NCBI GenBank assembly: GCA_049695115.1
Contig: JBAVRP010000070.1
Location: 63 to 64,062, forward strand
DNA length: 64,000 bases
Reading direction: 5' to 3'
Origin: Burkholderiales bacterium
GTDB taxonomy: Bacteria > Pseudomonadota > Gammaproteobacteria > Burkholderiales > JBEEJL01
The notes below the pieces were generated by a model. That model had not been told where the DNA came from. It saw nothing but the letters and a program-made list of their open reading frames with translations, and ran no database searches. A program made the position numbers and the translations under genes. Below, one piece after another: positions 86 through 62,890 of this stretch (within the stretch, counting starts at the first letter, position 1; the number at the start of each line of letters is the position of its first letter).

Positions 86-992
86 CGTGCAAAATCCTTA
101 AACATAAATCTTCAAATGAAAGCCCGGCCTGCTTCGCCGCCATCGGCACCAAACTGTGACCGGTCATGCCGGGCGAGGTATTCATTTCCAAAAATGAAAA
201 TGTGCCGTCGGGGCGCAGCATCACATCCGCGCGGCCCCAGCCGCGACAGCCCAAGACCTGAAATGCTTTCAGCGCCGCCGCACGGATTTGCGTTTCCGTT
301 TCGGTGCGAACACCCGCAGGGCTGTAGTACTTCACCTCGTCGGTGAAATATTTATTCTGGTAATCGTATTTGCCTTCCGGCGCTTCAATGCGCACCAGCG
401 GCAAGGTATCGTCGCCGAGAATCGCGGCAGTCAATTCCTGCCCGGCAACGAATTCTTCCGCCAACACCAGTGAATCGAATTTCGCTGCGAGTCCATACGC
501 CGCTTGCAACTCGTTGGCTGTATTAACTTTGCTAATGCCGATACTCGAACCTTCGTGCGCCGGTTTGACCATCAACGGCAAGCCGAGCGTGTGCAAAACT
601 TTTTTCCAGTCCGAACTGGCGTCGAGCAACATACATTTCGGCGTCGGGATGCTGGTTGCTTGCCACACCAGTTTGGTGCGCCACTTGTCCATCGACAACG
701 CGGAGGCCATCACACCGCTGCCGGTATAAGGAATGCCCATCAACTCGAGCGCGCCTTGCACTGTGCCGTCTTCGCCAAGCCGGCCGTGCAGCGAAATCAT
801 CGCGCGTTGAAATCCTTCCCGCGGCAGATCAAAAATGCTGCGCAATTTCGGGTCGAACGCGTGCGCATCGACGCCTTTGGCTTGCAAGGCTTTCAATACT
901 GCGTTGCCGCTGAGCAAAGAAATCTCGCGCTCGGCGCTGGTGCCGCCTAGTAACACCGCTACTTTGCCGAAATTGTAATTATTTGATTTCAT
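69..992 (-). CDS. ddl: D-alanine--D-alanine ligase
   Basis: 307-aa ORF. N-terminus GKVAVLLGGTSAEREISLLSG and an ATP-grasp body (EEFVAGQELTAAIL, LEMNTSPGMT). It is the last mur-type gene of the dcw cluster. Confidence 0.95.
   Translation of the reverse strand: MKSNNYNFGKVAVLLGGTSAEREISLLSGNAVLKALQAKGVDAHAFDPKLRSIFDLPREGFQRAMISLHGRLGEDGTVQGALELMGIPYTGSGVMASALSMDKWRTKLVWQATSIPTPKCMLLDASSDWKKVLHTLGLPLMVKPAHEGSSIGISKVNTANELQAAYGLAAKFDSLVLAEEFVAGQELTAAILGDDTLPLVRIEAPEGKYDYQNKYFTDEVKYYSPAGVRTETETQIRAAALKAFQVLGCRGWGRADVMLRPDGTFSFLEMNTSPGMTGHSLVPMAAKQAGLSFEDLCLRILHDAALG
976..988 (-). repeat. AT-rich junction element, IHF-consensus core AATCAAATAATTA
   Basis: Spans the murB stop / ddl start. The surrounding 30-mer 973-1002 is 28/30 identical to 52141-52170. 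Confidence 0.8.
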
Positions 993-1927
993 TGAATATT
1001 TTTACCAATAATTCTTACTTCACGAATCAGGTTTACACCTTGTTTTGCCAGCACTTGCGCTTGTACGTGATCGATTACTTGTTCGATGTCTGCTGCCGTC
1101 GCATCGCTGATATTCACAATAAAATTCGCATGCATGCGTGATACTTCTGCGCCGCCGATGCGAAAACCTTTCAGGCCGCAGGCTTCGATCAAGTGCGCCG
1201 CGTGATCCCCGATCGGGTTGCGGAACACCGAGCCGGCATTCGGCTCGCTTATCGGTTGAGTCGCGATGCGTTTGGTCAACAGCTCTTTGATTTTCAGTTT
1301 GGCGATTTCACCGTCGCCTGCGGGCAACACCAAGCTTGTGCTGACAAACCATTCCTCATTTTTCTCGCGCAACTCAACGTGTCGATAACTGATATCGAAA
1401 TCTTTTGGCGTGCGCTGACGAATCACGCCTTGGAGATCTATGGTTTTCACGCCCTCGACTATTTGCCAGGTGTCCCAGCCATAACAACCCGCATTCATCG
1501 CCAATGCGCCGCCCATGGTGCCGGGAATGCCGGCGAGAAATTCTGCGTTGGCTAAATCATGCCGCGCGGCGAAGCGCGCAACCTTCGGTGCGGCGACGCC
1601 GGCTTCGACTTCAATGTGGGTCGGGTCGGCAAGGCGGATTTGATCCAATACGGCGTGAGTGAATATCACCGTCGCATTGACGCCACCGTCGCGCACCAGG
1701 AGGTTGCTGCCAAGGCCGACAAAATAAATTTCTTCGTGGGCTTCGCGCGTGCGCAAAAATATTGCGAGATCGTCAAGGTCAGCCGGAATATAAGCGCGTA
1801 CTGCGTGGCCGCCCGCGCGCCAGCTCACGTGCCTTGCCATCGGCTCATGCAAGCGCAATTCGCCGCGCAGCGTATGGGCTTGCGCTGTTTTATCCGGCGG
1901 AAATTTTTTCGTTTCGCTCATAAGCAT
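989..1927 (-). CDS. murB: UDP-N-acetylenolpyruvoylglucosamine reductase
   Basis: The ORF track gives 989..1963. I prefer the ATG at 1927 (MLMSETKK), 7 nt after the murC stop. FAD-binding MurB motifs are present (GLGSNLLVRDGG, AGIPGTMGGALAMNAGCYG). The stop overlaps the ddl start (4-nt overlap). Confidence 0.92.
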   Translation of the reverse strand: MLMSETKKFPPDKTAQAHTLRGELRLHEPMARHVSWRAGGHAVRAYIPADLDDLAIFLRTREAHEEIYFVGLGSNLLVRDGGVNATVIFTHAVLDQIRLADPTHIEVEAGVAAPKVARFAARHDLANAEFLAGIPGTMGGALAMNAGCYGWDTWQIVEGVKTIDLQGVIRQRTPKDFDISYRHVELREKNEEWFVSTSLVLPAGDGEIAKLKIKELLTKRIATQPISEPNAGSVFRNPIGDHAAHLIEACGLKGFRIGGAEVSRMHANFIVNISDATAADIEQVIDHVQAQVLAKQGVNLIREVRIIGKNIQ

Positions 1928-4492: not shown

Positions 4493-4630
4493 ACCGAACG
4501 GCCTTTTTTCATATGCCTATTGTGGCTCCGACTAACATTGGCTGCGCCAATATTAGTCTCCACCGAAACCGCCAAACTGTAAAAGTGTGGGCAGGCGCTT
4601 TTCATACTGACCGCCCTTTTTTCATATGCC
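4489..4630. repeat. 29-bp direct repeat pair (4489-4517 and 4602-4630, 26/29 identical, 113-bp period) flanking an 84-bp insert with a hairpin
   Basis: Both copies encode the ftsW C-terminal tail HMKKGRSV plus a stop on the minus strand. Copy 1 keeps the ATGA overlap with the murG start. The insert carries a 12-bp imperfect stem (4530-4541 / 4547-4558). Confidence 0.85.
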
Positions 4631-5777
4631 GGTTTTCGTAATCCACACGCAGCAGCAAGGCAACAGCGATGCAATTAGCGACTATGCCACTGCCGCCAAA
4701 GCTGAGAAACGGCAGCGTCAATCCCTTGGTAGGCAAAATGCCCATGTTGACGCCCATATTGATCACGGATTGCACCGCAAGCCAGACGCCGATACCTTGC
4801 GCGACCAATGACGAGTAGTAGCGCTCCAATGTGGCTGCTTCGCGGCCGATGCTGAATGCGCGCATGATTAAAAATACAAACATCGCGAGCACGGTGATCA
4901 CACCGGCGAAGCCCAACTCTTCCGCGATCACGGCTAACAAAAAGTCTGTATGCGCTTCCGGTAAATAAAATAATTTTTCCACGCTGGCGCCAAGGCCGAC
5001 GCCAAACCATTCGCCGCGGCCGAAGGCGATTAGCGCATGGGACAACTGGTATCCCGTGCCGAACGGGTCTGCCCACGGATCCATGAAATTCAACACGCGC
5101 TGCATACGGTAAGGCGAAGTAATAATCAACACCACAAATGCCGCCAGTAACATCAATATCAAGCCGAGGAATAAACGCCAGTTGAGCCCACCCAAAAATA
5201 ATATCGACATAGCTATACAACTGATCACCACCAACGCGCCGAAATCCGGCTCGCGCAACAGCAGCGCACCGACCAGGAACATAACGCCGAACATCGGCAA
5301 AAATCCTTTTTTGAAACTGTGCATGGCCTTGAATTTACGCACTGTGTAATCGGCAGCGTAAAGCACTGCGAACAGCTTCATGAATTCCGACGGCTGGATG
5401 GTGAATGCTACGAGGGAAATCCAGCGACGGCTGCCGTTGACTTCACGGCCGATGAATGGAATGAGCACCAATATCAGCGCCATCAATCCGGCAGTGAAAA
5501 TGACCGGCGCTAATTTTTGCCATTGGCGCATGGGCAAGCGGAATGCCGCATAGCCGGCGCAAATTCCACCGATAAGATAAATGCTGTGGCGGGCAAGAAA
5601 ATAGGCGGAACGGTGGCCGGTCATGCGCTCGGCATCGGCCATGGCGATGGAGGCGGAATACACCATCACCAAGCCGAATGACAGCAGCAGCAAGGTGACC
5701 CACACCAAACCCTGGTCGTAGTCCGCTCTTTCCTGCGGACGCGCGATGCTGTTTGAATAAAAGCCGGCGTTTATCAT
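4602..5777 (-). CDS. ftsW: cell division lipid II flippase / SEDS glycosyltransferase FtsW
   Basis: 391 aa, polytopic. SEDS motifs are present ([40 protein letters not shown]). dcw context. Confidence 0.95.
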
Positions 5778-7171
5778 AAACGCGCTCCCGTCGCCACTTT
5801 GGGTTTAAGCGAGAGCACGGCTTGAATGAACATTTCAGCGCGCTGAACATAATTGCGGAACATATCGAAACTGGCGCAGGCGGGTGACAGCAACACCGCG
5901 TCGCCGGGCTGCGCGGCGGCGAAACTTTTATTCACTGCATCGGGCATATCGCTGGCCCGCGACAGCGGCACGCCGCTGGTTTTCAGCGCAGCGGCTATGA
6001 GTTCGGCATCGCGGCCGATAAGCACGACTGCGCGGGCGTGGTTTTTAACCGGTTCGTTCAGCGGTGTAAAATCCTGCCCCTTGCCGTCGCCGCCGGCGAT
6101 CAACACCACAGGTTGTGACATACCGTTCAACGCCGCGACGGTTGCACCGACGTTAGTACCTTTGGAGTCATCGTAGAAAATAACGTCGCTGATCCGCGCG
6201 ACTTCTTGCACGCGATGGGGCAAACCTTTGAAATTTTTCAGCGCGGCGATAAGAGGCGCAGGTGCCAAATTGATCGCGCGACACAACGCCAAAGCAGCTA
6301 ATGCGTTCACTGCGTTGTGTAAGCCGTTTATATGTAACTCATTGATTATAATTAATTTTTTATATCCTTGATAAAGGCCTTTAATGCCTTCAACTTCGCT
6401 GATGCCGAATTCATTTTCATTTTTCGCTTTGTCTAATCCGAAAGTCACAGCGCGCTGTGTGCTCACCCGCATGCTCATGGTCAGCGCGTCATCGCGATTC
6501 AAAACTTGCGTGGTGCAATGGCGAAAAATCCGCGCTTTCGCCATCGCATAGTCGGCGATGTCGGCGTAGCGATCCATGTGATCCTGGCTGATGTTGAGTA
6601 CAGTGGCAGCATCGATTTTCAAATTAGCTGTGGTTTCCAATTGAAAGCTCGATAGTTCCAACACGTAAACATCGGGCTGGCCGCTCACTTCCGCTTCCAT
6701 TAGCGCATCGAGCACCGGCAAGCCGATGTTGCCTGCAACCACGGTTTTCAAACTCGCGGCTTGGCACATTTCGCCGACCAAAGTAGTGACGGTCGTTTTG
6801 CCATTGCTGCCGGTGATAGCGAGGACTTTTGGCCGCGCCGCCAATGCATTCAGTGCTTGTGCGAACAATTCTACGTCGCCGACTACCGGCACTTTAGCGG
6901 CAATGGCTTTTGCCAACAGCGGTTCGGAAAGCGGTACACCGGGGCTGATGGCGATGAGGTCAATACCAGTGAAACTGGAGGCTTTAAACGGGCCGGTGTC
7001 GAGCGGGGTCGAAGGGACAAGCTTGCCCAGCTCGCGCGCCAGCGGCGGATTGTCGCGCGAGTCGGCGACGCGCACATGCGCGCCGCGCGCATACAACCAG
7101 CGTGCCATCGACAGGCCGGTGTCGCCGAGACCCAACACTAACACGCGTTTATTTTTCAGTTCCAATGTCAT
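5774..7171 (-). CDS. murD: UDP-N-acetylmuramoylalanine--D-glutamate ligase
   Basis: 465 aa. [11 protein letters not shown]-terminus, [11 protein letters not shown]-loop, [15 protein letters not shown] overlaps with mraY (7171) and ftsW (5774-5777). Confidence 0.95.
6335..6347 (-). repeat. AT-rich element core AATCAATGAGTTA inside the murD coding sequence
   Basis: The 17-mer TATAATCAATGAGTTAC (6334-6350, minus) is identical to 46850-46866 (+). Confidence 0.75.
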
Positions 7172-9705: not shown

Positions 9706-11217
9706 TCAGTGGCCATATTTTTTTTGCAATGCTGCCGCTGCGTGTTGCACATCGCTGAACGGCGTTTTCACGCCAGCGATTTCCTGTGTTTCTTCGTGGC
9801 CTTTTCCGGCAATTAATAAAATATAATTTTTATCAATATAATCAATAGCTTGTGATATAGCGCTTGCTCGGTCAGATTGGATTTTTTTTTTCGCGTTACC
9901 CATTCCAGCGACGATTTGTTCCATGATCTGCGCAGGATTTTCGCTGCGCGGGTTATCGCTGGTGATAATGCTGATGTCGGCCAACTTCGCGCTGATTGCG
10001 CCCATTAATGGACGCTTGCCTTTGTCGCGATCGCCGCCGCAACCGAACAGGCAAACCAGCTGGCCGTTCGCAGGAACAATTTTGCGCAAAGTTAGTAAAA
10101 CTTTTTCCAGCGCGTCTGGCGTATGCGCGTAATCGACTACGACCAAAGGTTTATCGCCACCGCCGAGTTGTTGCAGGCGGCCGGGCGGCGCATCGAGTTG
10201 CGCCAGTGCGTGAATTGCGTCGCTGAACGAAACGCCCCCGGCGAGCAACACGCCCATTACGCCCAGCAGGTTCGATGCGTTGAATGCGCCGAGCAAGCGC
10301 GATTTCAAACGGCCATTACCCCAGCGCGAGGTAATATCAAGTTCCATGCCGTTAAGCGTCAAGGACAAATGGCTGCCACAAATGTCCCCTAGCTTGAGAC
10401 TGTAGGTAATGACTTCAAGATTTTCACTTTTGAGCTCCTGCACTAGCCGTGCGCCATATTCGTCGTCGATATTGACCACGGCAGTTTTCAGCTGCGGCAT
10501 GTGGAATAGCCTATGTTTGGCTTTTGCGTAGCTTTCCATATCGCCGTGATAATCCAGATGGTCGCGCGTGAGGTTGGTAAACAGCGCGACGTCGAATTTC
10601 ACCCCGTTCACGCGTCCCTGTTCAAGGCCGTGGCTGGAAGCTTCCATTGCTACGTGAGTTGCGCCTTGTTGCAAAAAATCTCTCAACATCGCTTGAAGGC
10701 CGATAGCTTCAGGTGTGGTGTGTGTCGCTTCAGTCAGTTGTTGCGCGCTACCGGCCAATCCATTACCGACCGTGCCGATGACAGCAGATTTTTTACCCAG
10801 GAACGAAAACGCGCTGGCGATCCAATGGCTGCAAGAAGTTTTGCCGTTAGTGCCGGTGACTCCAGCGACCCATAATTTTTGCGACGGATTGCCATACACA
10901 TGGCTGGCGATGCTGCCGATGTATTGCTGCAAATTGGCGATGCCGAGATTGGGCACTTGCCAATGTGCGGGCCAGGAAAAATTGTCTGAGTCCCACAACA
11001 CCGCCTTTGCGCCGCGTGAAATCGCGTCGGCAATATAGTTGCGGCCATCCACCGCTTCGCCGCGGAAGGCTGCGAAAGTCATGCCTTGAGTTACTGTGCG
11101 GCTATCGGCGGTGAGCGAACTGATACCCACGCCTAACTTATGCAGCTTGCTGATATCAAACGGCGATGGCGTACTAGTTTTCAAGCGCAGCGCCCTGTGG
11201 ATAATGGCGGCATTCAC
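9706..11217 (-). CDS. murE: UDP-N-acetylmuramoyl-L-alanyl-D-glutamate--2,6-diaminopimelate ligase
   Basis: 503 aa. VTGTNGKTS P-loop, and DNPR motif (SDNPRSENP) typical of meso-DAP-adding MurE. Confidence 0.95.
   Translation of the reverse strand: MNAAIIHRALRLKTSTPSPFDISKLHKLGVGISSLTADSRTVTQGMTFAAFRGEAVDGRNYIADAISRGAKAVLWDSDNFSWPAHWQVPNLGIANLQQYIGSIASHVYGNPSQKLWVAGVTGTNGKTSCSHWIASAFSFLGKKSAVIGTVGNGLAGSAQQLTEATHTTPEAIGLQAMLRDFLQQGATHVAMEASSHGLEQGRVNGVKFDVALFTNLTRDHLDYHGDMESYAKAKHRLFHMPQLKTAVVNIDDEYGARLVQELKSENLEVITYSLKLGDICGSHLSLTLNGMELDITSRWGNGRLKSRLLGAFNASNLLGVMGVLLAGGVSFSDAIHALAQLDAPPGRLQQLGGGDKPLVVVDYAHTPDALEKVLLTLRKIVPANGQLVCLFGCGGDRDKGKRPLMGAISAKLADISIITSDNPRSENPAQIMEQIVAGMGNAKKKIQSDRASAISQAIDYIDKNYILLIAGKGHEETQEIAGVKTPFSDVQHAAAALQKKYGH
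9840..9852 (+). repeat. AT-rich element core AATCAATAGCTTG inside murE (antisense)
   Basis: Preceded by the exact 11-mer AATATAATCAA (9835-9845). Confidence 0.7.
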
Positions 11218-14691: not shown

Positions 14692-14993
14692 TGTAGAGCA
14701 AACAAAAAGGTAGGTCAAGCCTGTATTTCAGGGAATTTTCTATGTGGAACAGGTACTTACGTGCGATTCTGCATGTCGCGTGAGGGAAAAAATCCCAATA
14801 AATTGAATGGGATAGCGGCGACACTCAAAGTGATTTGCTAAGTAGAGAGCGGCAAAAAAGACTTTTGCGGAATCGCAACAAAAGGAAGATTACGAAAACA
14901 AATGTGAAACTAGTGGTTTGGCAGGCGAAGCATTATTTTTTTCGCGACGACGTATTGCGCCGACATTGAGCTAAAACAGAGCTTAAAGAAAAT

Positions 14994-15304
14994 GTGAAGC
15001 AGGCCGATAAGCCGGGTTCTGTTACGGGGTCGCCCCTATGACAGTCATTCATCTGGGCGGGCGATTGCTCGCACGCTCAAGCCACCTACCCGCAAGCTTA
15101 CGCGAGCCGCGTCAATGCTTGCCTATTTGGTGTTGCTCCGGATGGAGGTTGCCGCGTTTCACCCGCAGCTTGCGCCGCGACTCGTCTCTGTGGCCCTGTT
15201 CCTCGCCTCACGGCGTACGGCCGTTAGCCGTCATCCTGCTCTGCGGAGCCCGGACTTTCCTCCACGGAAATGAATTTCCGCAGCGACTGTCTGGCCTGCT
15301 TCAC
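14994..15304 (-). ncRNA. rnpB: RNase P RNA, bacterial type A
   Basis: The reverse complement reads GAAGCAGGCCAGACAGTCGCTGCGG...GGAGGAAAGTCCGGGCTCCGCAGAG...ACAGAACCCGGCTTATCGGCCTGCTTCAC. It includes the universally conserved GGAAAGTCCGGGCTCC and ACAGAACCCGGCTTA blocks and P1 pairing between the ends. Confidence 0.92.
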
Positions 15305-17889: not shown

Positions 17890-18196
17890 TTTTTCTCTGT
17901 TGCATAAAATTTTTCAGATTAAACATAATTTTACGTTGTACAGGTGCTTTTGTATAGAGTATAGGAGTAGTGGTGGGGTGTAGAAAATGGGGAAAAGTAC
18001 TGTAACTTTACAAATTAAGTACATTATCCGTTCGCGTAATGCAAAAGGTCGGTTAACTTGAAAAGACACGTAAAATCAAAATATTACAAATATTCCTGGG
18101 AATGCAATTACTGCTATGGCAAACAGATACTTTTCAGCAATTTGGAAAGATTTTAATTTTATCACTTCCGTAAGCCGCTGATTTTAGGAAATACTG

Positions 18197-18209
18197 TAAC
18201 TAATTGATT
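18197..18209 (-). repeat. AT-rich element core AATCAATTAGTTA
   Basis: Lies in the AT-rich intergenic region upstream of the SxtJ-like gene. The core is identical to 43111-43123. Confidence 0.7.
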
Positions 18210-18278
18210 ATTATAAATAAAATTATTAAGGTTTGACTATCTATTTAGATAAAGTAGAGCTATAAAGAATAGAGAGTA

Positions 18279-19037: not shown

Positions 19038-20066
19038 TTATGCCAACAATTTCCAATTCACAGACTCGCTGGCACGCATTGGAACCAGTGTGTTGTCGCC
19101 GAATTTTATTTCGTCTGCCACCTTCAACGTAGTTTTTTCCAGCGTAATTTTTTCCGTATTGCGCGGCAGTTTATAAAAATCCGCGCCGAAAAAACTGGCG
19201 AAGCCTTCCAGTTTATCGAGGGCGTTGGCTTGTTCAAATACTTCGGCATACAATTCTATGCCTGCATGTGACGTGTAAAGTCCCGCACAGCCGCAGGCGT
19301 TTTCTTTGGTGTGTTTGGCGTGCGGCGCGCTGTCGGTGCCGAGAAAAAATTTTGGGTTGCCGCTGGCCGCTGCTTTCACCAACGCAAGCCGATGGCTTTC
19401 ACGCTTGAGTATCGGCAGGCAATAATTATGCGGGCGGATGCCGCCCTGGAAAATGGCGTTGCGGTTGAGCAATAAATGATGCGCGGTAATCGTGGCGGCA
19501 ATATTTTTCCCGGCGGCGAGTACGTAATCGACTGCGTGCGAGGTGGTGATGTGTTCCAGCACAATTCTCAGTGCGGGGAATTTATTCGCCAACGGTACAA
19601 GAATCGTCTCGATAAAAACTTTTTCCCGGTCGAATACATCGACATTTGCATCCGTCACTTCGCCATGAAGCAACAAGGGCATATCGTGCCGGTGCATGGC
19701 TTCAAGCACGGCGTAAGTTTTTTCCAGCGCCGTCACGCCGGAATCGGAGTTGGTAGTCGCGCCGGCCGGATAATATTTCACCGCATGGATAAATCCGCTG
19801 GCCTTGGCTTTGGCAATTTCCGACGGCATCATATTGTCGGTTAAATACAAAGTCATCAGCGGTTCAAACTTCATGCCTTTGGGAATCGCATCGATAATCC
19901 GCCGCCGATATTCCGCCGCCGCTTCCACCGTGGTAATCGGCGGTTTCAGATTGGGCATGATGATGGCGCGGGCGAAACGTTTTGCCGTATCGGGCAACAC
20001 ATCGCGCATCAGTTCGCCATCGCGCAGGTGTAGATGCCAGTCATCGGGGCGTGTAATTGTTATCAT
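19038..20066 (-). CDS. pyrC: dihydroorotase, homodimeric type (class II)
   Basis: The ORF track starts at 20189. I prefer the ATG at 20066 ([17 protein letters not shown]), the canonical class II PyrC N-terminus. Later motifs are also present ([22 protein letters not shown]). Confidence 0.93.
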
Positions 20067-20078
20067 AATTATTTGATT
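20066..20078 (-). repeat. AT-rich junction element core AATCAAATAATTA
   Basis: Fills the 23-bp hslO/pyrC spacer and touches the pyrC start codon. The core is identical to 976-988. Confidence 0.8.
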
Positions 20079-20089
20079 ATATTGAGTTT

Positions 20090-20962
20090 TTAGTGTTTTA
20101 TCGGCGGTGCGGGTGTAATCGCATCGCTGGCAAATAATTGTTCGGCGTCTACTGCGTCGAACTGATATTGCCGATTGCAAAACTGGCAAGTGACTTCCAC
20201 TTTACCTTCCTGTTTCAATGTCGCGGTGACTTCATCGCGTCCGATCATACGCAGCATACCGACTACGCGCTCGCGCGAGCAAGTGCAACGAAAACTGACG
20301 GCAATCGGTTCGAACAAACGCACATCTTCTTCATGATACAAGAGATGCAGAATTTTTTCCGGTGGCAATAATAGTTCAGCGGATTTTACCGTGGAGGCGA
20401 GATGCACGGCGCGGTTCCACGCATCGACATCCATTTCCAGTTCGCCCGGCAACTTTTGTAACAACAGCCCCGCCGCTTGATTGTTTGCCGTGGTGAGCCA
20501 CAAGCGCGTGGCAAGCTGTTCGGAAGTTTCCATATAATGCTGCAACGTTTCTGCCACTGTCTCGCCGGTTAGTTCCACAATGCCCTGGTACGTCTGGCGG
20601 CTGTCCTTCGGATCGATGGTAATGACAAAGCGCCCGCTGCCGGTGAGTTCGCGCAAACTGGTCAGTCCATCAAGCGAAGCTTCGTCCCATTGCGCCATCG
20701 CGCGCAACGTGAGATCGGAATTGCATTCGACAACCAGCAGTTTTACAGCGCCGTCTCCCTGGATTTGCATAATCAGACTGCCGTCGAATTTAAGCGTGGT
20801 GGCAAGCAGTGCGACCGACGCCATCAATTCGCCCAGGATATTTTTTATCGATGGCGGATAATGGTGGCGTTCCAGAACGGCCTGCCAGGTCGCGCCGAGT
20901 TGCACAATACTGCCGCGGATGTGCGCGTGTTCGAAAATAAATTTTTGCAAAGAATCAGCCAT
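20090..20962 (-). CDS. hslO: redox-regulated chaperone Hsp33
   Basis: 290 aa. The C-terminal zinc centre is CTCSRE...CQFCN. Confidence 0.93.
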
Positions 20963-22900: not shown

Positions 22901-23677
22901 ATGCATAAATTATTGATTATATTAAGTATTTTTAGCATCTCTTTGTTGCAGGGATGTGTGCCTGCCGCAGTCGGCGGACTGGTAGCAGGCGGTTTGGTAG
23001 CGGAAGATCGTCGCTCAGTAGGCACGCAGGCCGACGACCAGGCCATCGAAATCAAAGCGCTGAATCGCATTGCCGAAGCATTCAAAGGCAAACATCACAT
23101 CAACGTCACCAGTTACAACAAACAAGTGCTGCTCACCGGCGAAGCGCCGACGGAACAAGACAAGGCAGGCATAGAAGCCGTGGTGCGTGGAGTCGAGTAT
23201 GCCACGCAAGTGCAAAACGAAATCGTCGTCATGCCCAATACTGAACTCGGCTCGCGCAGCAACGACACGCTGATCACCGGCAAAGTTAAAACCCGCTTCG
23301 TCAGCTCCGGCCGTGGCGCGTTTTCTCCCAACCACGTTAAAGTGGTCACCGAAAACGGAGTCGTCTATCTGATGGGCCTGGTCACCAAGGAAGAAGGCGA
23401 TGCCGCAGCAAACATCGCCGCCAGTACCGGTGGCGTCACGCGCGTAGTAAAAGTATTTGAATACCGCCCAGCGGCAGCCGTCGCCCCAGCGGGGGCTACG
23501 CGTACCGATGCAGGTGCCGCGCCGGCGAATGTAGCGCCTGCTCCTGCCGTGCCTGCACCTGCGCCATTGCCGGTACCGGCACAAGTTCCAGCCACAACAC
23601 CCGGATACACGCCACCCGACGCACCCATCCAGCCGCCGCCGCAAGCGCCAGCGCCCGTGCCGATTCCGAAATCGTAG
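22901..23677 (+). CDS. BON-domain lipoprotein (DolP/YraP-like) with Pro/Ala-rich C-terminal tail
   Basis: 258 aa. Lipobox LLQGC, two BON repeats, then about 80 aa of PA-rich low complexity. Positioned after diaA as in the E. coli yraN-diaA-yraP cluster. Confidence 0.85.
   Translation: MHKLLIILSIFSISLLQGCVPAAVGGLVAGGLVAEDRRSVGTQADDQAIEIKALNRIAEAFKGKHHINVTSYNKQVLLTGEAPTEQDKAGIEAVVRGVEYATQVQNEIVVMPNTELGSRSNDTLITGKVKTRFVSSGRGAFSPNHVKVVTENGVVYLMGLVTKEEGDAAANIAASTGGVTRVVKVFEYRPAAAVAPAGATRTDAGAAPANVAPAPAVPAPAPLPVPAQVPATTPGYTPPDAPIQPPPQAPAPVPIPKS
22906..22918 (-). repeat. AT-rich junction element core AATCAATAATTTA
   Basis: Overlaps codons 2-6 of the BON lipoprotein gene, right after the diaA stop. 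Confidence 0.75.
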
Positions 23678-23741: not shown

Positions 23742-25238
23742 GTGAGAATTACCTGTTGCAAGGTAAGGCCTAACTTTTTTTATCGGCCCAATACGCAAAG
23801 GCTGTTTAACTTGACCGCTCTCTACACTACTTCTCTTTGCTGGTTTCGCCGCGATCTGCGCAGCCATGACCACGCGGCACTCCACCAAGCGTTGACGCAA
23901 TCGCGTAGCGTGCATTGCGTATTTGTTTTTGACACTGGAATTCTGGATAAACTCGCCCGCAAGGACGACCGACGCGTGGAGTTCATTTGGCACAGCATCG
24001 TTGAGTTACAAGAGTCGCTCGAAAAAATGGGCGGCGGCTTAATTGTGTTGCATGGAAATGCAGAACAAGAAATTCCCCAGCTGGCTCACGAACTGGGAGT
24101 AAACGCTGTGTTCGTCAACCATGATTACGAAGCGAATGCGCTTACGCGAGACGAGTATGTCGCCGAGGAGTTGCGTCAAAGTGGCATTGATTTTCATAGC
24201 AGCAAAGACCAAGTAATTTTTGAAAAACACGAAGTGCTGACGCAAAACAACAAACCGTTCACCGTATTTACGCCATATAAAAATGCCTGGTTGAAACGTT
24301 TTACCGATGACGATATGGCGCCTTACGAAATTGAAAAATATAAAAAACACTTCGCGCGGCCGACGCAAAAAGGGCTACCGTCCTTGGAGCAAATAGGGTT
24401 TGAAAAAACAAATATAATCAAATATATACAAAGCGGCGCATCAGGGGCGCAAGGGCTGCTCGCAGACTTCCAAAAACGTATGGCTGATTACAAAGACGCG
24501 CGTGATTTTCCTGCCGTGCGCGGCGTGTCGTATCTTTCTGTGCATTTACGCTTCGGCACTATTTCGATTCGCGAACTGGTGCGCGCGGCGCGCGCAAAAA
24601 CCAATCGTGGTGCAGAGTGTTGGCTGTCAGAATTAATTTGGCGTGAATTCTATTTCAACATCCTGCATCATTTTCCGCATGTGGCTGAGCGTTCATTTCG
24701 CCCGGAATATGATTTGATTCAATGGGAAAACAATCAGGCTCTATTTGCCGCATGGTGTGAGGGGAAAACCGGCTATCCGCTGGTTGATGCCGCTATGCGT
24801 CAGATAAACCAAACTGGTTATATGCATAATCGTTTGCGTATGATTGTGGCGAGTTTTTTGACCAAAGATTTGCACATCGATTGGCGCTGGGGCGAAAATT
24901 ATTTTGCTGATAATCTGAATGATTTCGACCTCGCCGCCAACAACGGCGGCTGGCAATGGGCGGCGTCAAGCGGCTGCGACACGCAACCTTATTTCCGTAT
25001 TTTTAATCCGGTCACGCAGTCTGAGCGTTTCGATGCGGAGGGAAAATTCATTCGCAAATATATTCCCGAGCTGACTCATTGCGATAACAAACGCATTCAC
25101 GCTCCGTGGTTGATGACGCCGCTAGAACAACAGGCCGCAGGTGTCGTTATAGGAAAAGATTATCCAGCGCCGGTGGTGGACCATGCAGTGGCGCGGGAGA
25201 AAACATTGAGGATGTATGGTGCGGTAAAAAAAACGTAG
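23742..25238 (+). CDS. phrB: deoxyribodipyrimidine photolyase (class I CPD type)
   Basis: The 498-aa ORF starts at a GTG. The conserved region begins at LCWFRRDLRSHDHAAL, so the real start may be the TTG at 23811. FAD-binding C-terminus motifs are present (WREFY, GYMHNRLRM, DLAANNGGWQWAAS). Confidence 0.92.
   Translation: MRITCCKVRPNFFYRPNTQRLFNLTALYTTSLCWFRRDLRSHDHAALHQALTQSRSVHCVFVFDTGILDKLARKDDRRVEFIWHSIVELQESLEKMGGGLIVLHGNAEQEIPQLAHELGVNAVFVNHDYEANALTRDEYVAEELRQSGIDFHSSKDQVIFEKHEVLTQNNKPFTVFTPYKNAWLKRFTDDDMAPYEIEKYKKHFARPTQKGLPSLEQIGFEKTNIIKYIQSGASGAQGLLADFQKRMADYKDARDFPAVRGVSYLSVHLRFGTISIRELVRAARAKTNRGAECWLSELIWREFYFNILHHFPHVAERSFRPEYDLIQWENNQALFAAWCEGKTGYPLVDAAMRQINQTGYMHNRLRMIVASFLTKDLHIDWRWGENYFADNLNDFDLAANNGGWQWAASSGCDTQPYFRIFNPVTQSERFDAEGKFIRKYIPELTHCDNKRIHAPWLMTPLEQQAAGVVIGKDYPAPVVDHAVAREKTLRMYGAVKKT
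24411..24433 (+). repeat. degenerate AT-rich element copy inside phr
   Basis: AATATAATCAAATATATACAAAG. It has the exact 11-mer, but the TTR part of the core is ATA. Confidence 0.5.
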
Positions 25239-27549: not shown

Positions 27550-28074
27550 TTAGCGCTTTTTGAATGATAACGTGACTTCGCCCAGCTTGAAACCAAATTT
27601 GCTCATCTCGGCGCGGTTGAGCATGACCTTGTCGTCCATCAAATACATCCAGTCATTGAAGTTGACGTGGTAGTTCGATTCGCCGACTTTCAGGTCGAGC
27701 ACGTAACGCCAATTGAGCGCGTTGCCATACGCTTCGCCCACTGGGCTGCCGATTACATCGCCCGCTTTTCCACTGTATTCATTCGGCCCGAGTTTGGTGA
27801 TGGTCCACACGCGGCGGTCTTTTGTGCCGTCGGAGTAAGTGAAGTCTTCGTCGAGCGTGCCGATGTTGCCATTCCATTTCGCGTCGATGACGACGGTGAA
27901 GCGCTTGACCACTTTGCCCGAGCGATCTTGAAACATTCCCCATGCATCAATGGTGCCGTTGAAATATTGCGCGAGATCGAGCACAGGTTTTTCTGCTGCG
28001 TAATCTTTCGGCACGACGCTGGCGCAACCTGATAAAAAAACTAATAAAAACAAATAGATATGTTTATGTCGCAT
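27550..28074 (-). CDS. DUF3833 lipocalin-like lipoprotein
   Basis: 174 aa. Lipobox FLSGC. Family assignment is by recall of its usual co-occurrence with CFA-synthase/DUF1365 clusters. Confidence 0.65.
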   Translation of the reverse strand: MRHKHIYLFLLVFLSGCASVVPKDYAAEKPVLDLAQYFNGTIDAWGMFQDRSGKVVKRFTVVIDAKWNGNIGTLDEDFTYSDGTKDRRVWTITKLGPNEYSGKAGDVIGSPVGEAYGNALNWRYVLDLKVGESNYHVNFNDWMYLMDDKVMLNRAEMSKFGFKLGEVTLSFKKR

Positions 28075-34245: not shown

Positions 34246-34256
34246 GAACAAAATAA

Positions 34257-34301: not shown

Positions 34302-34449
34302 AATACTGGAATTTTTCGATATAATCAAGTACTTTCACTGGAATATTATTTCTGGCTGAAATGGCTGTTGAACGCTAAGCTATAGTTATTTTTGAACAAA
34401 CTATAAATTCGCTTTCAATGCCATTCGATCCATTTCGATAGGAAGGTTT

Positions 34450-35840: not shown

Positions 35841-37064
35841 ATGCCCGTTAATTTGCCACCGTTGCACGCCGCCGATTTGCTTCCCGTCAAGGGCGTCACG
35901 CTCGGCTTCGCCGAAGCTCATATCAAAAAGCCGAACCGCAAAGATTTGCTGGTGATTTCCTTGGCGCAAAATGCAACGGTTAGCGGCGTGTTCACGCAAA
36001 ACCGTTTTTGCGCCGCGCCGGTGACGCTGTGCCGCGAACACCTGAAATCAGGCAACATCCGTGCGTTGGTGATCAATACTGGCTGCGCTAACGCAGGCAC
36101 AGGCGAGGAGGGCATTCACAACGCGCGTAGCGTATCTACGGAAGTGGCGAGGTTGGCGGGTTGCAAGCCAGAGCAAGTGTTGCCGTTTTCCACTGGCGTG
36201 ATTCTGGAACAATTGCCATTGCAGAAAATTATCGCCGGTTTACCCGCCGCAATCGCGGGACAAAAACCCGACAACTGGTTTCACGCTGCGCACGCCATCA
36301 TGACCACGGACACGGTGCCCAAAGCTGTGTCGTGCCAGATTAAAATCGGCGGCGAGTCGATCACGATTACCGGCATGAGCAAAGGCGCAGGGATGATACA
36401 CCCGAACATGGCGACCATGCTGGGCTTTGTGGCTACCGATGCGACCATCAGCCAATCATTATTAAATGACATTACCAAACATGCCGCTGACCGCTCATTC
36501 AATCGCATCACTATAGACGGTGATACATCGACCAACGATTCATTCATCGTCATGGCAACAGGACAAACAGGCAAACCCATTATTGATGCGAGTAGCGCGG
36601 AATGTGGCGCGTTGAAAGATGCGCTGACCAAAGTCGCGATACAGCTCGCGCAGGCCATCGTGCGCGATGGCGAAGGCGCGACCAAATTCATGACGGTACA
36701 AGTTGAAGGCGGCAAGAACGAAGATGAATGCGCCAAGATTGCTTTTGCTATCGCGCACTCACCGCTGGTGAAGACCGCGTTCTTTGCGTCCGATCCGAAT
36801 CTGGGCCGCATTCTCGCCGCAATCGGTTATGCAGGTGTCGATGATCTCGATGTGAACAAAATGGAACTTTATTTGGGTGACGTATTGGTGGCGGAAAAAG
36901 GCGGCCGCGCGTTGAGTTACAGCGAAGACCAGGGACAGCGCGTTATGAAGGAAGCAGAAATTTTGATTCGGGTAAAATTAAACCGCGGCAAGGCAGAAAC
37001 CAAAGTATGGACCTGCGATTTTTCCTACGATTACGTGAAAATCAACGCCGATTATAGAAGTTGA
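35841..37064 (+). CDS. argJ: bifunctional ornithine acetyltransferase / N-acetylglutamate synthase
   Basis: The ORF track starts at 35823. I prefer the ATG at 35841 (MPVNLPP). Autoprocessing site [11 protein letters not shown] and C-terminus [16 protein letters not shown]. Confidence 0.95.
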
Positions 37065-37076
37065 ATAATTTAATAT

Positions 37077-37089
37077 AATCAAATGCTTA
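37077..37089 (+). repeat. AT-rich junction element core AATCAAATGCTTA
   Basis: Lies in the 29-bp argJ/DUF815 spacer, in the context TTTAATATAATCAAATGCTTACAAT. Confidence 0.8.
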
Positions 37090-37093
37090 CAAT

Positions 37094-43084: not shown

Positions 43085-43110
43085 CGTAGAATCCTTAAAT
43101 ATATTAATAT

Positions 43111-43123
43111 AATCAATTAGTTA
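43111..43123 (+). repeat. AT-rich junction element core AATCAATTAGTTA
   Basis: Lies in the 41-bp bioC/PCu(A)C spacer. Confidence 0.8.
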
Positions 43124-43125
43124 TA

Positions 43126-46134: not shown

Positions 46135-46854
46135 ATGTCAATTTCAGCCGCTATCAGCCGCATATTCAATAAGTCAAAAATCGCCTTGCCGCAGGATTGT
46201 CTTTTGTGCGCGGCGCGGGCCCACGTGCAGCCCCTGTGCGAAGCGTGCGAGCAGGCATTGCCTTATCATGACGCACCCGCATGCCCACAGTGCGCGCTTG
46301 CTACCACTGCCGCCCGCGTATGCGGTGAGTGTCTGCGCCACCCACCGGTATTTGATGCGACATTGGCAGCGTTCGACTATCGCTTTCCCGTCGATATCCT
46401 GGTGCATCAGATCAAATACCATAGCAATCTCGCACTGGTCAATTTCGTCGCTAACAGTTTATTGCGCAAACTGCGCAATGCTGAGAAGCCGGTTCTGATT
46501 CTGGCGATGCCCTTGCACAGCGCACGGTTGCAACAGCGCGGATTTAATCAATCGGCGGAAATTGCCAAGCAGTTAACGCGACTATGGAGCGTGCCGTTGC
46601 AATTGGACGGCTACCAGCGCATCCGCCATACCGAGGAGCAAGCTGGCTTGCCGTGGAAAGAACGTCACGCCAATGTGCGCGGCGCGTTCTCCTGCGATCT
46701 TGATTTGCGCGGTAAACATGTGGCAGTGATTGATGATGTCATGACCACCGGCGCGACGCTGAACGAATTTGCCAGCACGCTCAAAAAATCCGGCGCGGAA
46801 AAAATATCTGCCTATGTAGTAGCCAGAACGTTAAAAAAAGAATTTTCAATATAA
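46135..46854 (+). CDS. comF: ComF family protein (phosphoribosyltransferase-like)
   Basis: 239 aa. N-terminal Cys pairs (CLLC...CEAC, CPQC...CGEC) and PRTase motif VAVIDDVMTTGATL. Confidence 0.85.
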   Translation: MSISAAISRIFNKSKIALPQDCLLCAARAHVQPLCEACEQALPYHDAPACPQCALATTAARVCGECLRHPPVFDATLAAFDYRFPVDILVHQIKYHSNLALVNFVANSLLRKLRNAEKPVLILAMPLHSARLQQRGFNQSAEIAKQLTRLWSVPLQLDGYQRIRHTEEQAGLPWKERHANVRGAFSCDLDLRGKHVAVIDDVMTTGATLNEFASTLKKSGAEKISAYVVARTLKKEFSI

Positions 46855-46865
46855 TCAATGAGTTA
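46853..46865 (+). repeat. AT-rich junction element core AATCAATGAGTTA
   Basis: Fills the 3-bp comF/trmL gap. The trmL ATG (46858-60) lies inside the core. Confidence 0.8.
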
Positions 46866-47325
46866 CGATTTAGTCCTCTATCAGCCGGAAATCCCCGGCA
46901 ACACCGGCAACATCATCCGTCTGTGCGCCAACACCGGCGTAGGTTTGCATTTAGTGAAACCGTTAGGATTCGACCTCGAAGACAAACAAATGAAACGCGC
47001 CGGCTTGGATTACCGCGAATACGCCGATTTGGAATTGCATGAAGATTGGCCGGCATGTGTCGCGTATTTTTCGGGTAGAAGAATGTTCGCCGTCACCACC
47101 AAAGGTGCGACGCGTTACAGCGATGTGCAATTCAAAATCGATGACGTGTTTGTGCTCGGGCCGGAAACGCGCGGATTACCGCCGGAAATTATCCAGAGTT
47201 TTCCGCCGGAGCAACGCTTGCGTATGCCCATGCAAGCGCAAAGCCGCAGCCTGAATTTATCCAATACCGCTGCGGTCTTGGTTTATGAGGCATGGCGGCA
47301 AATAAAATTTAGCGGCGGCGTCTAA
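46858..47325 (+). CDS. trmL: tRNA (cytidine/uridine34-2'-O)-methyltransferase
   Basis: 155 aa. SPOUT motifs EIPGNTGNIIRLCANTG and LNLSNTAAVLVYEAWRQ. Confidence 0.92.
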   Translation: MSYDLVLYQPEIPGNTGNIIRLCANTGVGLHLVKPLGFDLEDKQMKRAGLDYREYADLELHEDWPACVAYFSGRRMFAVTTKGATRYSDVQFKIDDVFVLGPETRGLPPEIIQSFPPEQRLRMPMQAQSRSLNLSNTAAVLVYEAWRQIKFSGGV

Positions 47326-49291: not shown

Positions 49292-49301
49292 GATATTTAC
49301 C

Positions 49302-49314
49302 TAAGTTGTTGATT
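49302..49314 (-). repeat. AT-rich junction element core AATCAACAACTTA
   Basis: Lies in the 42-bp grxC/secB spacer. The 15-mer TTGATTATAATTAAT (49309-23) is identical to 6343-6357. Confidence 0.8.
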
Positions 49315-49333
49315 ATAATTAATAATTTATGAA

Positions 49334-52139: not shown

Positions 52140-52143
52140 TTTG

Positions 52144-52156
52144 TAATTAGTTGATT
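52144..52156 (-). repeat. AT-rich junction element core AATCAACTAATTA
   Basis: Lies in the 40-bp envC/S41 peptidase spacer. Confidence 0.8.
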
Positions 52157-52179
52157 TTATTGAATATTTTGGAGCAGCT

Positions 52180-54934: not shown

Positions 54935-55060
54935 TTGACTATGGCGCTAACAGTCTTCATAACAAAATATATAACTATTTGATTGCATGGAATTTTTTTA
55001 ACGAAAAAATAATTCTTCATGCGACACAAGCCAAGCAACAATTTCTGTCAAAATAAAAAC

Positions 55061-58497: not shown

Positions 58498-58941
58498 ATG
58501 AGTCTGCGCGAACAAATTACTGAAGACATGAAATCCGCCATGCGCGCGAAGGAAACTGAGCGGCTGAACGCGATTCGCCTGCTGCTGGCTGCGCTGAAGC
58601 AAAAAGAAGTCGACGAGCGCGTGACTTTGAGCGACGCCGATGTGATTTCGATTATCGAAAAAATGCTCAAGCAAAGACGCGACTCCATTTCGCAATTTGA
58701 AGCGGCCAAGCGCCAGGATCTCGCTGACAAAGAAAAATTTGAAGTCAGCATACTCGAAGCTTACATGCCCAAAGCCATGAGCGAAGCAGAAGTGGCGGCG
58801 GCGATAGACGAAGCGATTAAATCTTCCGGTGCAGCGGGAATGAAAGACATGGCTAAAGTCATGGCGACGCTGAAACCGATTTTGGCTGGACGCTCAGATA
58901 TGGCGAAAGTGTCCGGTTTGATCAAAGCCAAGCTCAATTAA
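58498..58941 (+). CDS. GatB/YqeY domain-containing protein
   Basis: The ORF track starts at 58447. I prefer the ATG at 58498 (MSLREQITEDMKSAMRAKE), preceded by GACGGAG. It sits between rpsU and dnaG, as is common. Confidence 0.9.
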   Translation: MSLREQITEDMKSAMRAKETERLNAIRLLLAALKQKEVDERVTLSDADVISIIEKMLKQRRDSISQFEAAKRQDLADKEKFEVSILEAYMPKAMSEAEVAAAIDEAIKSSGAAGMKDMAKVMATLKPILAGRSDMAKVSGLIKAKLN

Positions 58942-58952
58942 AAATTAAATAT

Positions 58953-58965
58953 AATCAAATAGTTA
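58953..58965 (+). repeat. AT-rich junction element core AATCAAATAGTTA
   Basis: Lies in the yqeY/dnaG spacer, in the context ATTAAATATAATCAAATAGTTACAAT. Confidence 0.8.
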
Positions 58966-59026
58966 CAATTATAAATTATTCATTATTTTTACTCTCCGGG
59001 CAGCGGTACACTAACGCTTGCCGACT

Positions 59027-60787
59027 ATGATTCCCCAGGATTTTATTCAAACTCTGCTCGACCGCGTCGATATTGTCGATGTGGTCGAACGCTACGTGCC
59101 GCTGAAAAAAGCCGGCTCCAACCTTAAAGCCTGTTGCCCGTTTCACAACGAAAAATCGCCGTCGTTTAACGTCAGTCAGACCAAACAGTTCTATCACTGC
59201 TTCGGTTGCGGCGCCCACGGCACGGCGATTTCATTTTTGATGGAATACGCGGGCATGGGTTTTATCGAAGCGGTCAAAGATCTGGCCGACAGCGTCGGGA
59301 TGCAAATGCCGGCGCTGGAAATACGCCGCGACGCGAATCGCGGCGACGCAGCGCCGGGGGCGGGCGATTCCGGCAATATCCAACATCTGTACGAAACGCT
59401 ATATCGTGCCATGCAGTTTTACCGCGAAGAATTAAAGACAGCGCCGCATGCCATCGCGTATCTTAAACAGCGTGGATTATCGGGCGAAATCGCCGCGCGT
59501 TTCGGCATCGGCTACGCGCCCGCGGGCTGGCAGAATCTGGAAAAAATTTTTCCTGATTACCCATCGAAAAATTTAATCGATGCAGGCTTAGTCATTAAAA
59601 ACGAAGAGGGCAAACATTACGACCGTTTCCGCGATCGGGTGATGTTTCCGATTATCAATGCCAAGGGCAATATCATCGGCTTCGGCGGCCGCGTGTTGGA
59701 CAAGGGCGAGCCGAAATATCTCAATTCGCCAGAGACGCCGGTGTTTGACAAAGGGCGCGAGTTGTATGGCTTGTACCAAGCACGCAAATCCATACGCGAG
59801 AAAGGCCGCGTGATGGTGGTCGAAGGTTATATGGACGTAGTCGCGCTGGCGCAACACGGCGTCGAATACACCGTCGCCACGCTCGGCACAGCGACTACGC
59901 CCACGCATATCCAGAAATTATTACGCACGACGCAGAATGTGGTGTTTTGTTTCGACGGCGACAAAGCCGGGCGCGCGGCGGCGTGGCGCGCGCTTGAAGT
60001 GGCGTTGCCGTACCTTACCGACGGCGCCAATGTGAGTTTTTTGTTTTTGCCGTCGGAACACGACCCGGACAGCTATGTGCGCGAATTCGGCCGTGAGGCG
60101 TTGGAGAAATTATTGGCTGATGCCCCGTCGTTGTCCACTTACATGCTGCGTGAACTGACTGCCCAAGTGGATTTGAAAAATGAAGAGGGCCGTGCGCGTT
60201 TGCTGCAACACGCCAAGCCCTTGATAAGCCAAATCACCGCCCCGACATTAAGCTTACTGCTGCGAAATCGACTAACGGCATTAACCGGCGTGAGTCGTGC
60301 GGAAATCGATTCGTTGTTTCAATTGCAGCCTATCCGCGAGGAACGGCAAAGGGGCCCGGCCAAAGCGCCGCGCAACGCGCCGTCACTCGAAGGAAAAATG
60401 ATAGGCATGGTGCTGCATCATCCGCCGTTGGCGCATGAATTCGGCGGTGAAGCGAACTACGGCGTGACGCCGGAAGCCAAAACCCTGGCTGAATTAGTGC
60501 GCATAATCGTCGAAAAAAGACCGCAAAAGTCGGGGAATGTAATGGAATATTTTCGCGACACCCCCTATGAAAAGATATTGCAGGAGCGGGCGGCTGAAGG
60601 TTTGAAGCAAGCGGAAAATTTTTCCGCAAACGAATTGGAGCAGGAATTCCGGGGAGCTTTGGCTCAATTGCGCGAACTGAATCGCAAATATGAAATAAAT
60701 GATTTGTTGAAAAAATCCCAACGTGAAGCATTAAGCGAAAGCGATAAAGCGCGCTACCTCGAATTAACCAAGCAGCATAATAGTTAA
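59027..60787 (+). CDS. dnaG: DNA primase
   Basis: The ORF track starts at TTG 59018. I prefer the ATG at 59027 (MIPQDFIQTLLDRVDIVDVV). Zinc ribbon CCPFHNEKSPSF...YHCFGCGAHG and TOPRIM domain (VVEGYMDVV, FDGDKAG). Confidence 0.96.
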   Translation: MIPQDFIQTLLDRVDIVDVVERYVPLKKAGSNLKACCPFHNEKSPSFNVSQTKQFYHCFGCGAHGTAISFLMEYAGMGFIEAVKDLADSVGMQMPALEIRRDANRGDAAPGAGDSGNIQHLYETLYRAMQFYREELKTAPHAIAYLKQRGLSGEIAARFGIGYAPAGWQNLEKIFPDYPSKNLIDAGLVIKNEEGKHYDRFRDRVMFPIINAKGNIIGFGGRVLDKGEPKYLNSPETPVFDKGRELYGLYQARKSIREKGRVMVVEGYMDVVALAQHGVEYTVATLGTATTPTHIQKLLRTTQNVVFCFDGDKAGRAAAWRALEVALPYLTDGANVSFLFLPSEHDPDSYVREFGREALEKLLADAPSLSTYMLRELTAQVDLKNEEGRARLLQHAKPLISQITAPTLSLLLRNRLTALTGVSRAEIDSLFQLQPIREERQRGPAKAPRNAPSLEGKMIGMVLHHPPLAHEFGGEANYGVTPEAKTLAELVRIIVEKRPQKSGNVMEYFRDTPYEKILQERAAEGLKQAENFSANELEQEFRGALAQLRELNRKYEINDLLKKSQREALSESDKARYLELTKQHNS

Positions 60788-60797
60788 TATATTGATT
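60785..60797 (-). repeat. AT-rich junction element core AATCAATATATTA
   Basis: Overlaps the dnaG stop codon. Confidence 0.7.
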
Positions 60798-60957
60798 ACA
60801 TTGATTTTTTTATTAAAACGAAGTACAATCTTTTAAAATAATATTTATCTGTTTTCGGGCGTTCGCATAACAAAACGCAGCTTAAGTAGTCTAAAGTTCT
60901 GATATACTTAACGGCTTTTTTCAACGCCTTTTTCACTCAGTTTTCACTGGAACCGAC

Positions 60958-62832: not shown

Positions 62833-62855
62833 GGCTCGATGTAACAACTAAATAG

Positions 62856-62868
62856 TAAATAGTTGATT
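62856..62868 (-). repeat. AT-rich junction element core AATCAACTATTTA
   Basis: Lies 24 nt after the rpoD stop. Confidence 0.7.
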
Positions 62869-62890
62869 ATTATCGTATTTCTGTAAATAT

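Follow-up and report, generated by a model that had tools for sequence, protein, structure and literature searches.

How does a DNA word written inside an essential gene of cell-wall synthesis come to recur, letter for letter, in spacers between other genes? The question is raised by a 64-kb stretch (the window) of a metagenome-assembled genome labelled Burkholderiales bacterium, from an uncultured organism, in which the murD gene shares words of 15 and 17 nucleotides (nt) with the comF/trmL junction and the grxC/secB spacer. We analysed the window together with ~150 kb of DNA from relatives and found that these words belong to a family of 31-bp sites spread along the window, mostly between genes. 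Judged by its sequence, which matches the recognition elements of integration host factor (IHF), the motif is probably a high-affinity architectural site of the IHF type, kept by selection even inside essential genes.

The 17-mer TATAATCAATGAGTTAC occurs exactly at 6334-6350 (minus strand, murD sense) and at 46850-46866 (plus strand), as originally predicted, and at the comF/trmL junction the end of comF (TAA, 46852-46854) and the start of trmL (ATG at 46858) both fall within the motif, the latter in a frame unlike that of murD. The 15-mer TTGATTATAATTAAT is likewise identical between murD and the grxC/secB spacer (49309-49323), although its murD coordinates are 6342-6356 and not 6343-6357 as first given. 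In murD the stretch is translated as part of a 23-residue segment that includes KKLIIINEL, and a further copy is indeed present on the plus strand at 9835-9852 (AATATAATCAATAGCTTG), antisense to murE, where the protein reads AIDYIDKNY. The words had been called AT-only, yet the 17-mer contains two G and two C. They had also been held hard to explain by chance; this does not apply to a single pair, since an unrelated exact 17-mer pair exists elsewhere in the window (5235/11798) and one pair is thus weak evidence alone, but it does apply to the motif family, which is far above chance. The exact identities are membership of one motif family plus a few coincident spacer bases, and the murD and secB sites also have the minor variant AATTATAATCAA in common.

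The family consensus, from 15 aligned sites, is aAAaaatT.AATATAATCAA.tA.TTAc, laid out over ~31 bp as an A-tract, 8 bp including an ApA step, AATCAA, 4 bp and TTA(C), with an information content of ~33 bits over 31 bp (17 sites). Of the core AATATAATCAA the window has 8 copies where an order-4 Markov model predicts 0.12, and at each word length from 8 to 11 it ranks first for over-representation. Allowing up to three mismatches, the 17-mer has 6 matches in the window against 0.05 expected, and TTGATTATAAT with at most one mismatch has 14 against 1.09. Similarity between copies ends at ~31 bp, with flanks diverging directly outside. A 31-bp position weight matrix (PWM) was trained on ten purely intergenic sites of the window, which themselves score 28.8-43.8 bits; a score of at least 22 bits then gave about 18 sites in the window (Table 1), and 20 bits served as the reporting threshold in the loci of relatives.

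A canonical IHF site combines WATCAA and TTR with a pair of AA steps at a distance of 9 bp and, in its 5' half, a run of 4-6 A (PMC1874591), and all four elements are present in the family consensus at canonical spacings. AATCAA is near-invariant in the consensus and occurs in 16 of the 18 listed sites; TTR stands exactly 4 bp 3' of WATCAA, and 15 of the 18 match the literature consensus WATCAANNNNTTR exactly. That consensus, which was defined independently of the window sequence, occurs 20 times in the window compared with 3.26 ± 1.89 in shuffled sequence, and none of 100 shuffles reached 20. Between the end of the A-tract aAAaaa and AATCAA lie 8 bp, as in the H' site of phage lambda (A6-N8-TATCAA-N4-TTG), and the conserved AA of '.AATAT' sits 9 bp 5' of the AA in ATCAA. 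When phage lambda was scanned with the PWM from the window's intergenic sites, the three best of 96,944 positions were one upstream of pL, one within the H2 region of attP, and I1 at cos; attP and the region upstream of pL contain known IHF sites. Taken in register, the H2, H' and H1 sites of attP rank 12, 19 and 49. I1 is located between R3 and R2 (PMC4669245).

Spread over the window at ~1 per 3.6 kb and in either orientation, the sites mostly occupy short spacers and the junctions or overlaps of genes. About 70% of them fall in spacers, which make up ~10% of the DNA, and most spacer sites begin 0-30 nt past a stop codon. Eight share the orientation of their flanking genes and eight oppose it, which fits an architectural site and not a promoter or RNA signal. 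The 18 sites (983 to 62863), listed post hoc from this one window, lie on average 3.64 kb apart with a coefficient of variation of 0.51, a spacing more even than random (P = 0.002 against uniform placement; P = 0.009 against random gene junctions). Four sites are fully intragenic, in murD, murE, the photolyase gene (phr) and the signal-peptide codons of dolP, and the score of the murD site equals those of the best intergenic sites, within the range of the training set.

Table 1. Sites of the 31-bp motif in the window, with PWM scores.
Location	Coordinates	Strand	Score (bits)	Further sequence features
murD interior, codons ~269-281, sense	6333..6363	-	39.0	WATCAANNNNTTR match at 6335-6347
murE C-terminal domain (AIDYIDKN), antisense, weaker	9824..9854	+	22.5	AATCAATAGCTTG at 9840-9852
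comF stop / trmL start	46837..46867	+	32.8	
42-bp grxC-secB spacer; TTA runs into secB ribosome-binding site (TTAGG)	49300..49330	-	37.7	
murB stop / ddl start overlap	974..1004	-	37.4	
Divergent intergenic region	18195..18225	-	34.2	AATCAATTAGTTA
Fills hslO-pyrC spacer; pyrC ATG overlaps TTA element	20064..20094	-	38.6	
dolP-like lipoprotein gene, first codons (signal peptide MHKLLIILSIF), antisense, directly past gmhA stop	22904..22934	-	34.4	
Photolyase gene interior, sense (KTNIIKYIQ)	24400..24430	+	32.8	
Weak candidate, 5' end of gene 27550-28074(-)	28032..28062	+	25.2	core AAACAA, without full consensus match
Divergent region, CarH-like regulator gene / gene 34450-35277	34307..34337	+	32.9	second consensus match 34257-34269(-)
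Fills spacer between argJ and downstream gene	37061..37091	+	41.1	
Spacer past bioC, opposite to both flanking genes	43095..43125	+	42.1	
envC-ctpA spacer, opposite to genes, abuts ctpA ribosome-binding site	52142..52172	-	39.7	
Upstream of moeB-like gene	54970..55000	-	28.8	AATCAAATAGTTA
Directly past stop of gene 58447-58941, upstream of dnaG	58937..58967	+	43.8	window's best
Straddles dnaG stop (60785-60787), dnaG-rpoD spacer	60783..60813	-	33.0	
Past rpoD, upstream of tRNA cluster	62854..62884	-	28.8	

Selection on the DNA site itself, which had been offered as one possible reading of the shared words, is supported for the intragenic copies by synonymous shuffles, by invariant rare codons and by synonymous conservation. 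In gene-wide shuffles, synonymous codons were permuted within each of 63 genes while protein and codon usage were kept (1000 shuffles). Only 0.07 coding matches of at least 28 bits were expected against 3 observed, and no shuffle reached the murD score (P < 0.001). A more conservative local shuffle, confined to ±30 codons so that the locally AT-rich codon pool was kept, gave four independent values of P = 0.014 for murD, 0.007 for murE, 0.034 for the photolyase gene and 0.008 for dolP. Synonymous conservation was 0.82 in the murD site window (0.57 overall), and 0.86 in that of murE (0.60 overall), where it was the highest of any internal window. All seven close metagenomic relatives compared (MurD identity 75-88%, GC content 53-59%) carry the murD codons AAA AA(A/C) ... 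AT(C/A) AAT GA(G/A/C) TTA.A. ATA at the same positions, and K271 (AAA), N277 (AAT), L279 (TTA) and I281 (ATA) keep the same codon in all eight sequences. Across murD, an invariant codon was found in only 40 of 274 columns with an invariant amino acid, and TTA and ATA account for 11.7% of leucine and 15.3% of isoleucine codons in the window. In murE, CAA nnn ATT GAT, which corresponds to the consensus YAANNNNTTGATW on the sense strand, is invariant in six of six relatives. The photolyase codons AAT ATA ATC AAA are kept in a further relative (L093), where the site scores 29.7 bits; the surrounding genes there are non-syntenic with the window, and the comparison covers the photolyase site alone.

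Coding and non-coding sites alike are conserved at orthologous positions. In six of the seven close relatives the murD site is either the top-scoring or the sole PWM match in the locus of the dcw cell-wall cluster (25-36.6 bits), and in the seventh (L083) it falls below the reporting threshold of 20 bits while retaining the core AATCAATGAGTTA; the same relative has a weaker match at the murB/ddl junction. A second set of four relatives, retrieved through GpsA at 75-83% identity (L088, L089, L090 and L091), covers several of the spacer sites. The grxC/secB site is conserved in all four (20-41.5 bits), as is the envC/ctpA site (26-42.6 bits), and the comF/trmL site is present in each, trmL ATG included. 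Matches also occur in the bioC-flanking spacer of L088 and L090, and the site upstream of dnaG has an orthologue of 40.1 bits in L091. The core varies among relatives (AAAATCAA, TTAATCAA, AAAAACAA). The same four relatives carry a SCPU-PapD-usher fimbrial operon between gpsA and trmL, which the window is without, and their usher genes have a conserved internal IHF-type site of their own, GTAAAATAGTATTTATAATCAA..ACTTG (L088 14034, L089 10854, L090 14069, L091 14016).

In the distant relatives compared, both the motif family and the murD site are missing. As a negative control we used 80 distant loci from a genome-collection scan for murD relatives, which yielded none above 64% MurD identity; 70 distant murD genes were compared. 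In the window and its close relatives the perfect consensus has a density of 2.2-3.1 per 10 kb; in the 80 distant loci the figure is 0.26 per 10 kb, equal to expectation, and ATATAATCAAT does not occur there at all. At the homologous position the consensus is missing from all 70 distant murD genes, and the distant MurD proteins read LM..(A/S)EL at the patch, compared with KKL..INEL in the clade. Had relatives without the intergenic element carried the same murD sequence, the patch would have been ordinary conserved coding sequence, as the original prediction recognized; instead, the relatives with the murD sequence carry the family too, and the coding sequence and the intergenic family occur together and are absent together.

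That an element had been inserted or gene-converted into the open reading frames was suggested by the exact 15-17-mers common to coding interiors and spacers. A small mobile or repeated element is, however, highly improbable. MurD and MurE align with their orthologues column for column, with no indel at the patch in comparison with 18 MurD and 5 MurE sequences, and the alignment thus gives no sign of a lineage-specific insertion. Neither terminal repeats nor target duplications were seen at the aligned sites of the window, and the flanks diverge immediately outside the motif. The murD, murE and photolyase sites stand at the same codons in relatives of 75-88% identity and are therefore old, which counts against a mobile element and leaves recent gene conversion both unnecessary and unsupported. 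Some identity at variable spacer bases would, moreover, be expected for one pair or another among ~18 sites. An inserted element resembling REP (repetitive extragenic palindrome) sequences or miniature inverted-repeat transposable elements was rejected on the same grounds, with no larger unit seen around the sites, and an Rfam scan of the window found no family at the sites, only RNase P RNA and tRNAs. The sites are thus better described as binding sites of the IHF type, by sequence, than as an element in the sense first proposed.

Chance likeness between codons for K, I, N and L and an AT-rich spacer word has the least to recommend it of all the explanations considered, and we regard it as barely credible. 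The segment KKLIIINEL does predispose to the motif, as the local shuffles make plain, and an unrelated exact 17-mer pair does exist, but both the gene-wide and the local shuffles reject chance, the rare codons are kept in every sequence of the clade, and the site is absent from the 70 distant orthologues. Conservation at the level of mRNA or translation, through a rare-codon cluster that slows translation near the boundary of MurD domains 2 and 3 or through an AU-rich RNA signal, would account for the invariant TTA and ATA codons and for a patch that is locally AT-rich (GC content 0.38). It is nevertheless very unlikely: the motif is a specific sequence, more than a set of rare codons, and it is conserved on the antisense strand of murE and dolP and, within spacers, in either orientation, which an RNA or codon-pace signal cannot explain. 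Slightly less improbable, but still doubtful, is that the sites are sigma-70 -10 elements preceded by an A-rich, UP-like tract, in which case the murD copy would be an internal promoter of the dcw cluster, for instance for ftsW. The core in the window does spell a perfect TATAAT after an A-tract, and several sites stand 10-20 nt upstream of starts in the right orientation (pyrC, secB, dnaG and gene 37094). However, the aligned sites have no conserved -35 element or TG extension, a promoter scan of the window was unenriched (21 matches compared with 15.5 ± 4.5), and half of the sites are directed away from the flanking genes or run against them. Start codons also fall inside the motif, the trmL ATG beginning 2 nt past the hexamer and the ddl ATG preceding it, and relatives have degenerate forms of the hexamer (TAAAAT, TTTAAT, TTAAAT) but an unchanged AATCAA-N4-TTA.

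Several observations count against IHF as the protein or against the strength of the case for selection. The E. coli IHF matrix holds 8.4 bits over 13 bp, and the E. coli genome has no excess of high-scoring IHF sites (PMC6397444); at ~33 bits, the sites described here are far more information-rich. This behaviour is atypical for IHF as known from E. coli, and another, lineage-specific protein with a similar preference is therefore possible. The second-best match in lambda lies 9 bp out of register with H2, which makes the lambda cross-check supportive rather than decisive, and AT-rich matrices favour AT-rich regulatory DNA in any case. In addition, the window's core, unlike that of relatives, includes a perfect -10 hexamer. 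For murD in particular, the amino-acid sequence alone gives a mean best score of 26 bits under local shuffling, and its site window is only tied for top synonymous conservation.

A different lineage-specific recognition system, for example a signal akin to DNA uptake sequences or a site bound by some other abundant DNA-binding protein, would make the likeness to IHF sites coincidental or partial, and we consider this unlikely though not negligible. The stereotyped sites of very high information content speak for it, as do enrichment confined to the clade, orientation independent of genes, copies in coding sequence and a spacing more even than random. Clade-specific enrichment, orientation independence, coding copies and even spacing are known properties of uptake sequences, and the window contains comF. 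The traits in question are atypical of E. coli IHF sites (PMC6397444). On the other side, a chance match to four IHF elements at the right spacings is improbable, the 13-bp consensus alone amounting to 16 bits, and ~70% of the sites crowd into the ~10% of DNA that is spacer. Like the DNA uptake sequences (DUS) of Neisseriaceae and the uptake signal sequences (USS) of Pasteurellaceae, the motif is clade-specific, over-represented, orientation-independent, placed in open reading frames via compatible codons and evenly spaced. It nonetheless has no sequence similarity to either, varies in its core among relatives where uptake cores are near-invariant, and is 3-4 times less dense (~1 per 3.6 kb against ~1 per kb for uptake sequences); it also decomposes exactly into IHF elements.

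Other identities for the motif were rejected. Matches to the pattern of IHF-assisted sigma-54 promoters (TGGCAC-N5-TTGCW with at most two mismatches) numbered 31 against 47.5 expected, none adjoining the sites. The FNR/CRP box (TTGAT-N4-ATCAA) has two inverted half-sites, of which the motif conserves just the right one, ATCAA; at the left it reads T.AAT, without the G. Compared by eye with their consensus sequences, Fur, DnaA and ArcA boxes, Ter/Tus and dif gave no fit beyond ATCAA or AT-richness.

As a feature, an IHF-type site is of a kind already known; what is unusual here is its uniformity, the enrichment of its consensus in this clade only and its even spacing. IHF is general in Proteobacteria. 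Repeated, high-affinity and intergenic IHF sites are found in enterobacteria as RIB/RIP elements within BIME-1 repeats, typically right past the 3' end of a gene. The sites of the window resemble these in being repeated IHF-type sites that lie between genes soon after gene ends, but they are without flanking REP palindromes or a larger repeated unit, and some copies lie in coding sequence. BIMEs (bacterial interspersed mosaic elements) are intergenic repeats that may form domain barriers, and IHF motifs are abundant in E. coli, with ~3000 per genome (PMC6907758). The same four elements at the same spacing (PMC1874591) characterise the IHF sites of E. coli and of phage lambda (attP H', H1 and H2; cos I1). 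The putative sites of the window are far more uniform (~33 compared with 8.4 bits, PMC6397444), and it is in this clade alone that their perfect consensus shows a 5-6-fold enrichment. Intragenic binding by regulatory and nucleoid proteins is also known, and intragenic sigma-54 and FliA sites likewise place a protein-binding motif over coding sequence and are conserved between species (PMC6397444). Whereas most intragenic binding sites have been argued to arise by chance (PMC6397444), the shuffles and the conservation of rare codons argue for selection here.

Several further features of the window were noted. The region 34251-34450, from which a CarH-like (B12/light-type) regulator gene and an unannotated gene diverge, has two oppositely oriented matches to the IHF-type consensus, and the photolyase gene lies ~9 kb from it. 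The unrelated 17-mer pair is an inverted exact repeat, AGCCGGATTTCGGCGCG, at 5235-5251 in ftsW and 11798-11814 in the open reading frame 11214-12950 (presumed ftsI), and looks like chance. An exact 19-mer is shared by murD and murE (6798-6816 and 9330-9348), presumably through the paralogy of nucleotide-binding motifs (GSNGKT/GTNGKT). A 29-nt direct repeat (4489-4517 and 4602-4630, 90% identical, 113 bp apart) duplicates the junction of the ftsW stop and murG start (GGCATATGAAAAAAGG.CG.TC.GTATGA); ftsW and murG overlap directly in the relative L082, and the window therefore seems to carry an insertion of ~84 bp at ftsW/murG, with a copy of the duplicated junction on either side. The RNase P RNA (bacterial class A, 255.7 bits) is encoded at 14992-15302 on the minus strand, just upstream of mraZ, and the open reading frame 15038-15415(+) over it is spurious. 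In the tRNA cluster (Met-Tyr-Gly-Thr), an exact direct duplication of ~70 nt (63250-63319 and 63394-63463) takes in the 5' half of tRNA-Gly(TCC) together with the 36 nt before it, and a truncated pseudo-tRNA fragment therefore stands between tRNA-Tyr and tRNA-Gly. The rpoD coding sequence contains a perfect 20-bp palindrome, CATCGACGAGCTCGTCGATG, at 61470-61489, which a terminator scan also called as a hairpin.

If the sites are indeed bound by IHF, the protein, a heterodimer of IhfA and IhfB, would bend the DNA sharply (by >160 degrees) at each of them, serving local DNA architecture or the organisation of the nucleoid; candidate purposes include the architecture of local promoters, nucleoid looping and domain barriers. 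Sites would be maintained in spacers and, where needed, within coding sequence. In long stretches that offer no spacer, as in the dcw cluster, and also in the photolyase interior and at the 5' end of dolP, they may have been written into genes, spelled with the help of amino acids that have AT-rich codons (K, I, N, L) and of synonymous codons that are AT-rich and in part rare. Once there, the coding copies would be kept by purifying selection acting on the DNA site. A bolder possibility, which we put forward only tentatively, is that the sites form a quasi-regular, genome-wide punctuation, with one site per ~3-4 kb, usually past stop codons, acting as bends or loop anchors and reshaping murD and murE, or else that they belong to an undescribed clade-specific recognition system, for example a DNA-uptake signal, whose sequence is IHF-like. 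Were punctuation the case, the need for spacing would be strong enough to shape the choice of amino acids and codons wherever a long operon offers no spacer.

For genome annotation, the motif marks gene junctions and should be taken neither for a mobile element nor for a promoter. Under the IHF-type reading, an uncultured betaproteobacterial clade would possess a stereotyped site of ~33 bits at conserved positions, compared with the degenerate, ~8-bit paradigm of E. coli, and such stereotypy may make the function, spacing and evolution of IHF sites computationally tractable in this lineage. The intragenic copies would represent a natural case of dual coding, in which a site of DNA-protein recognition constrains both the codons and the amino acids of essential cell-wall genes, a constraint still visible between species as invariant rare codons.

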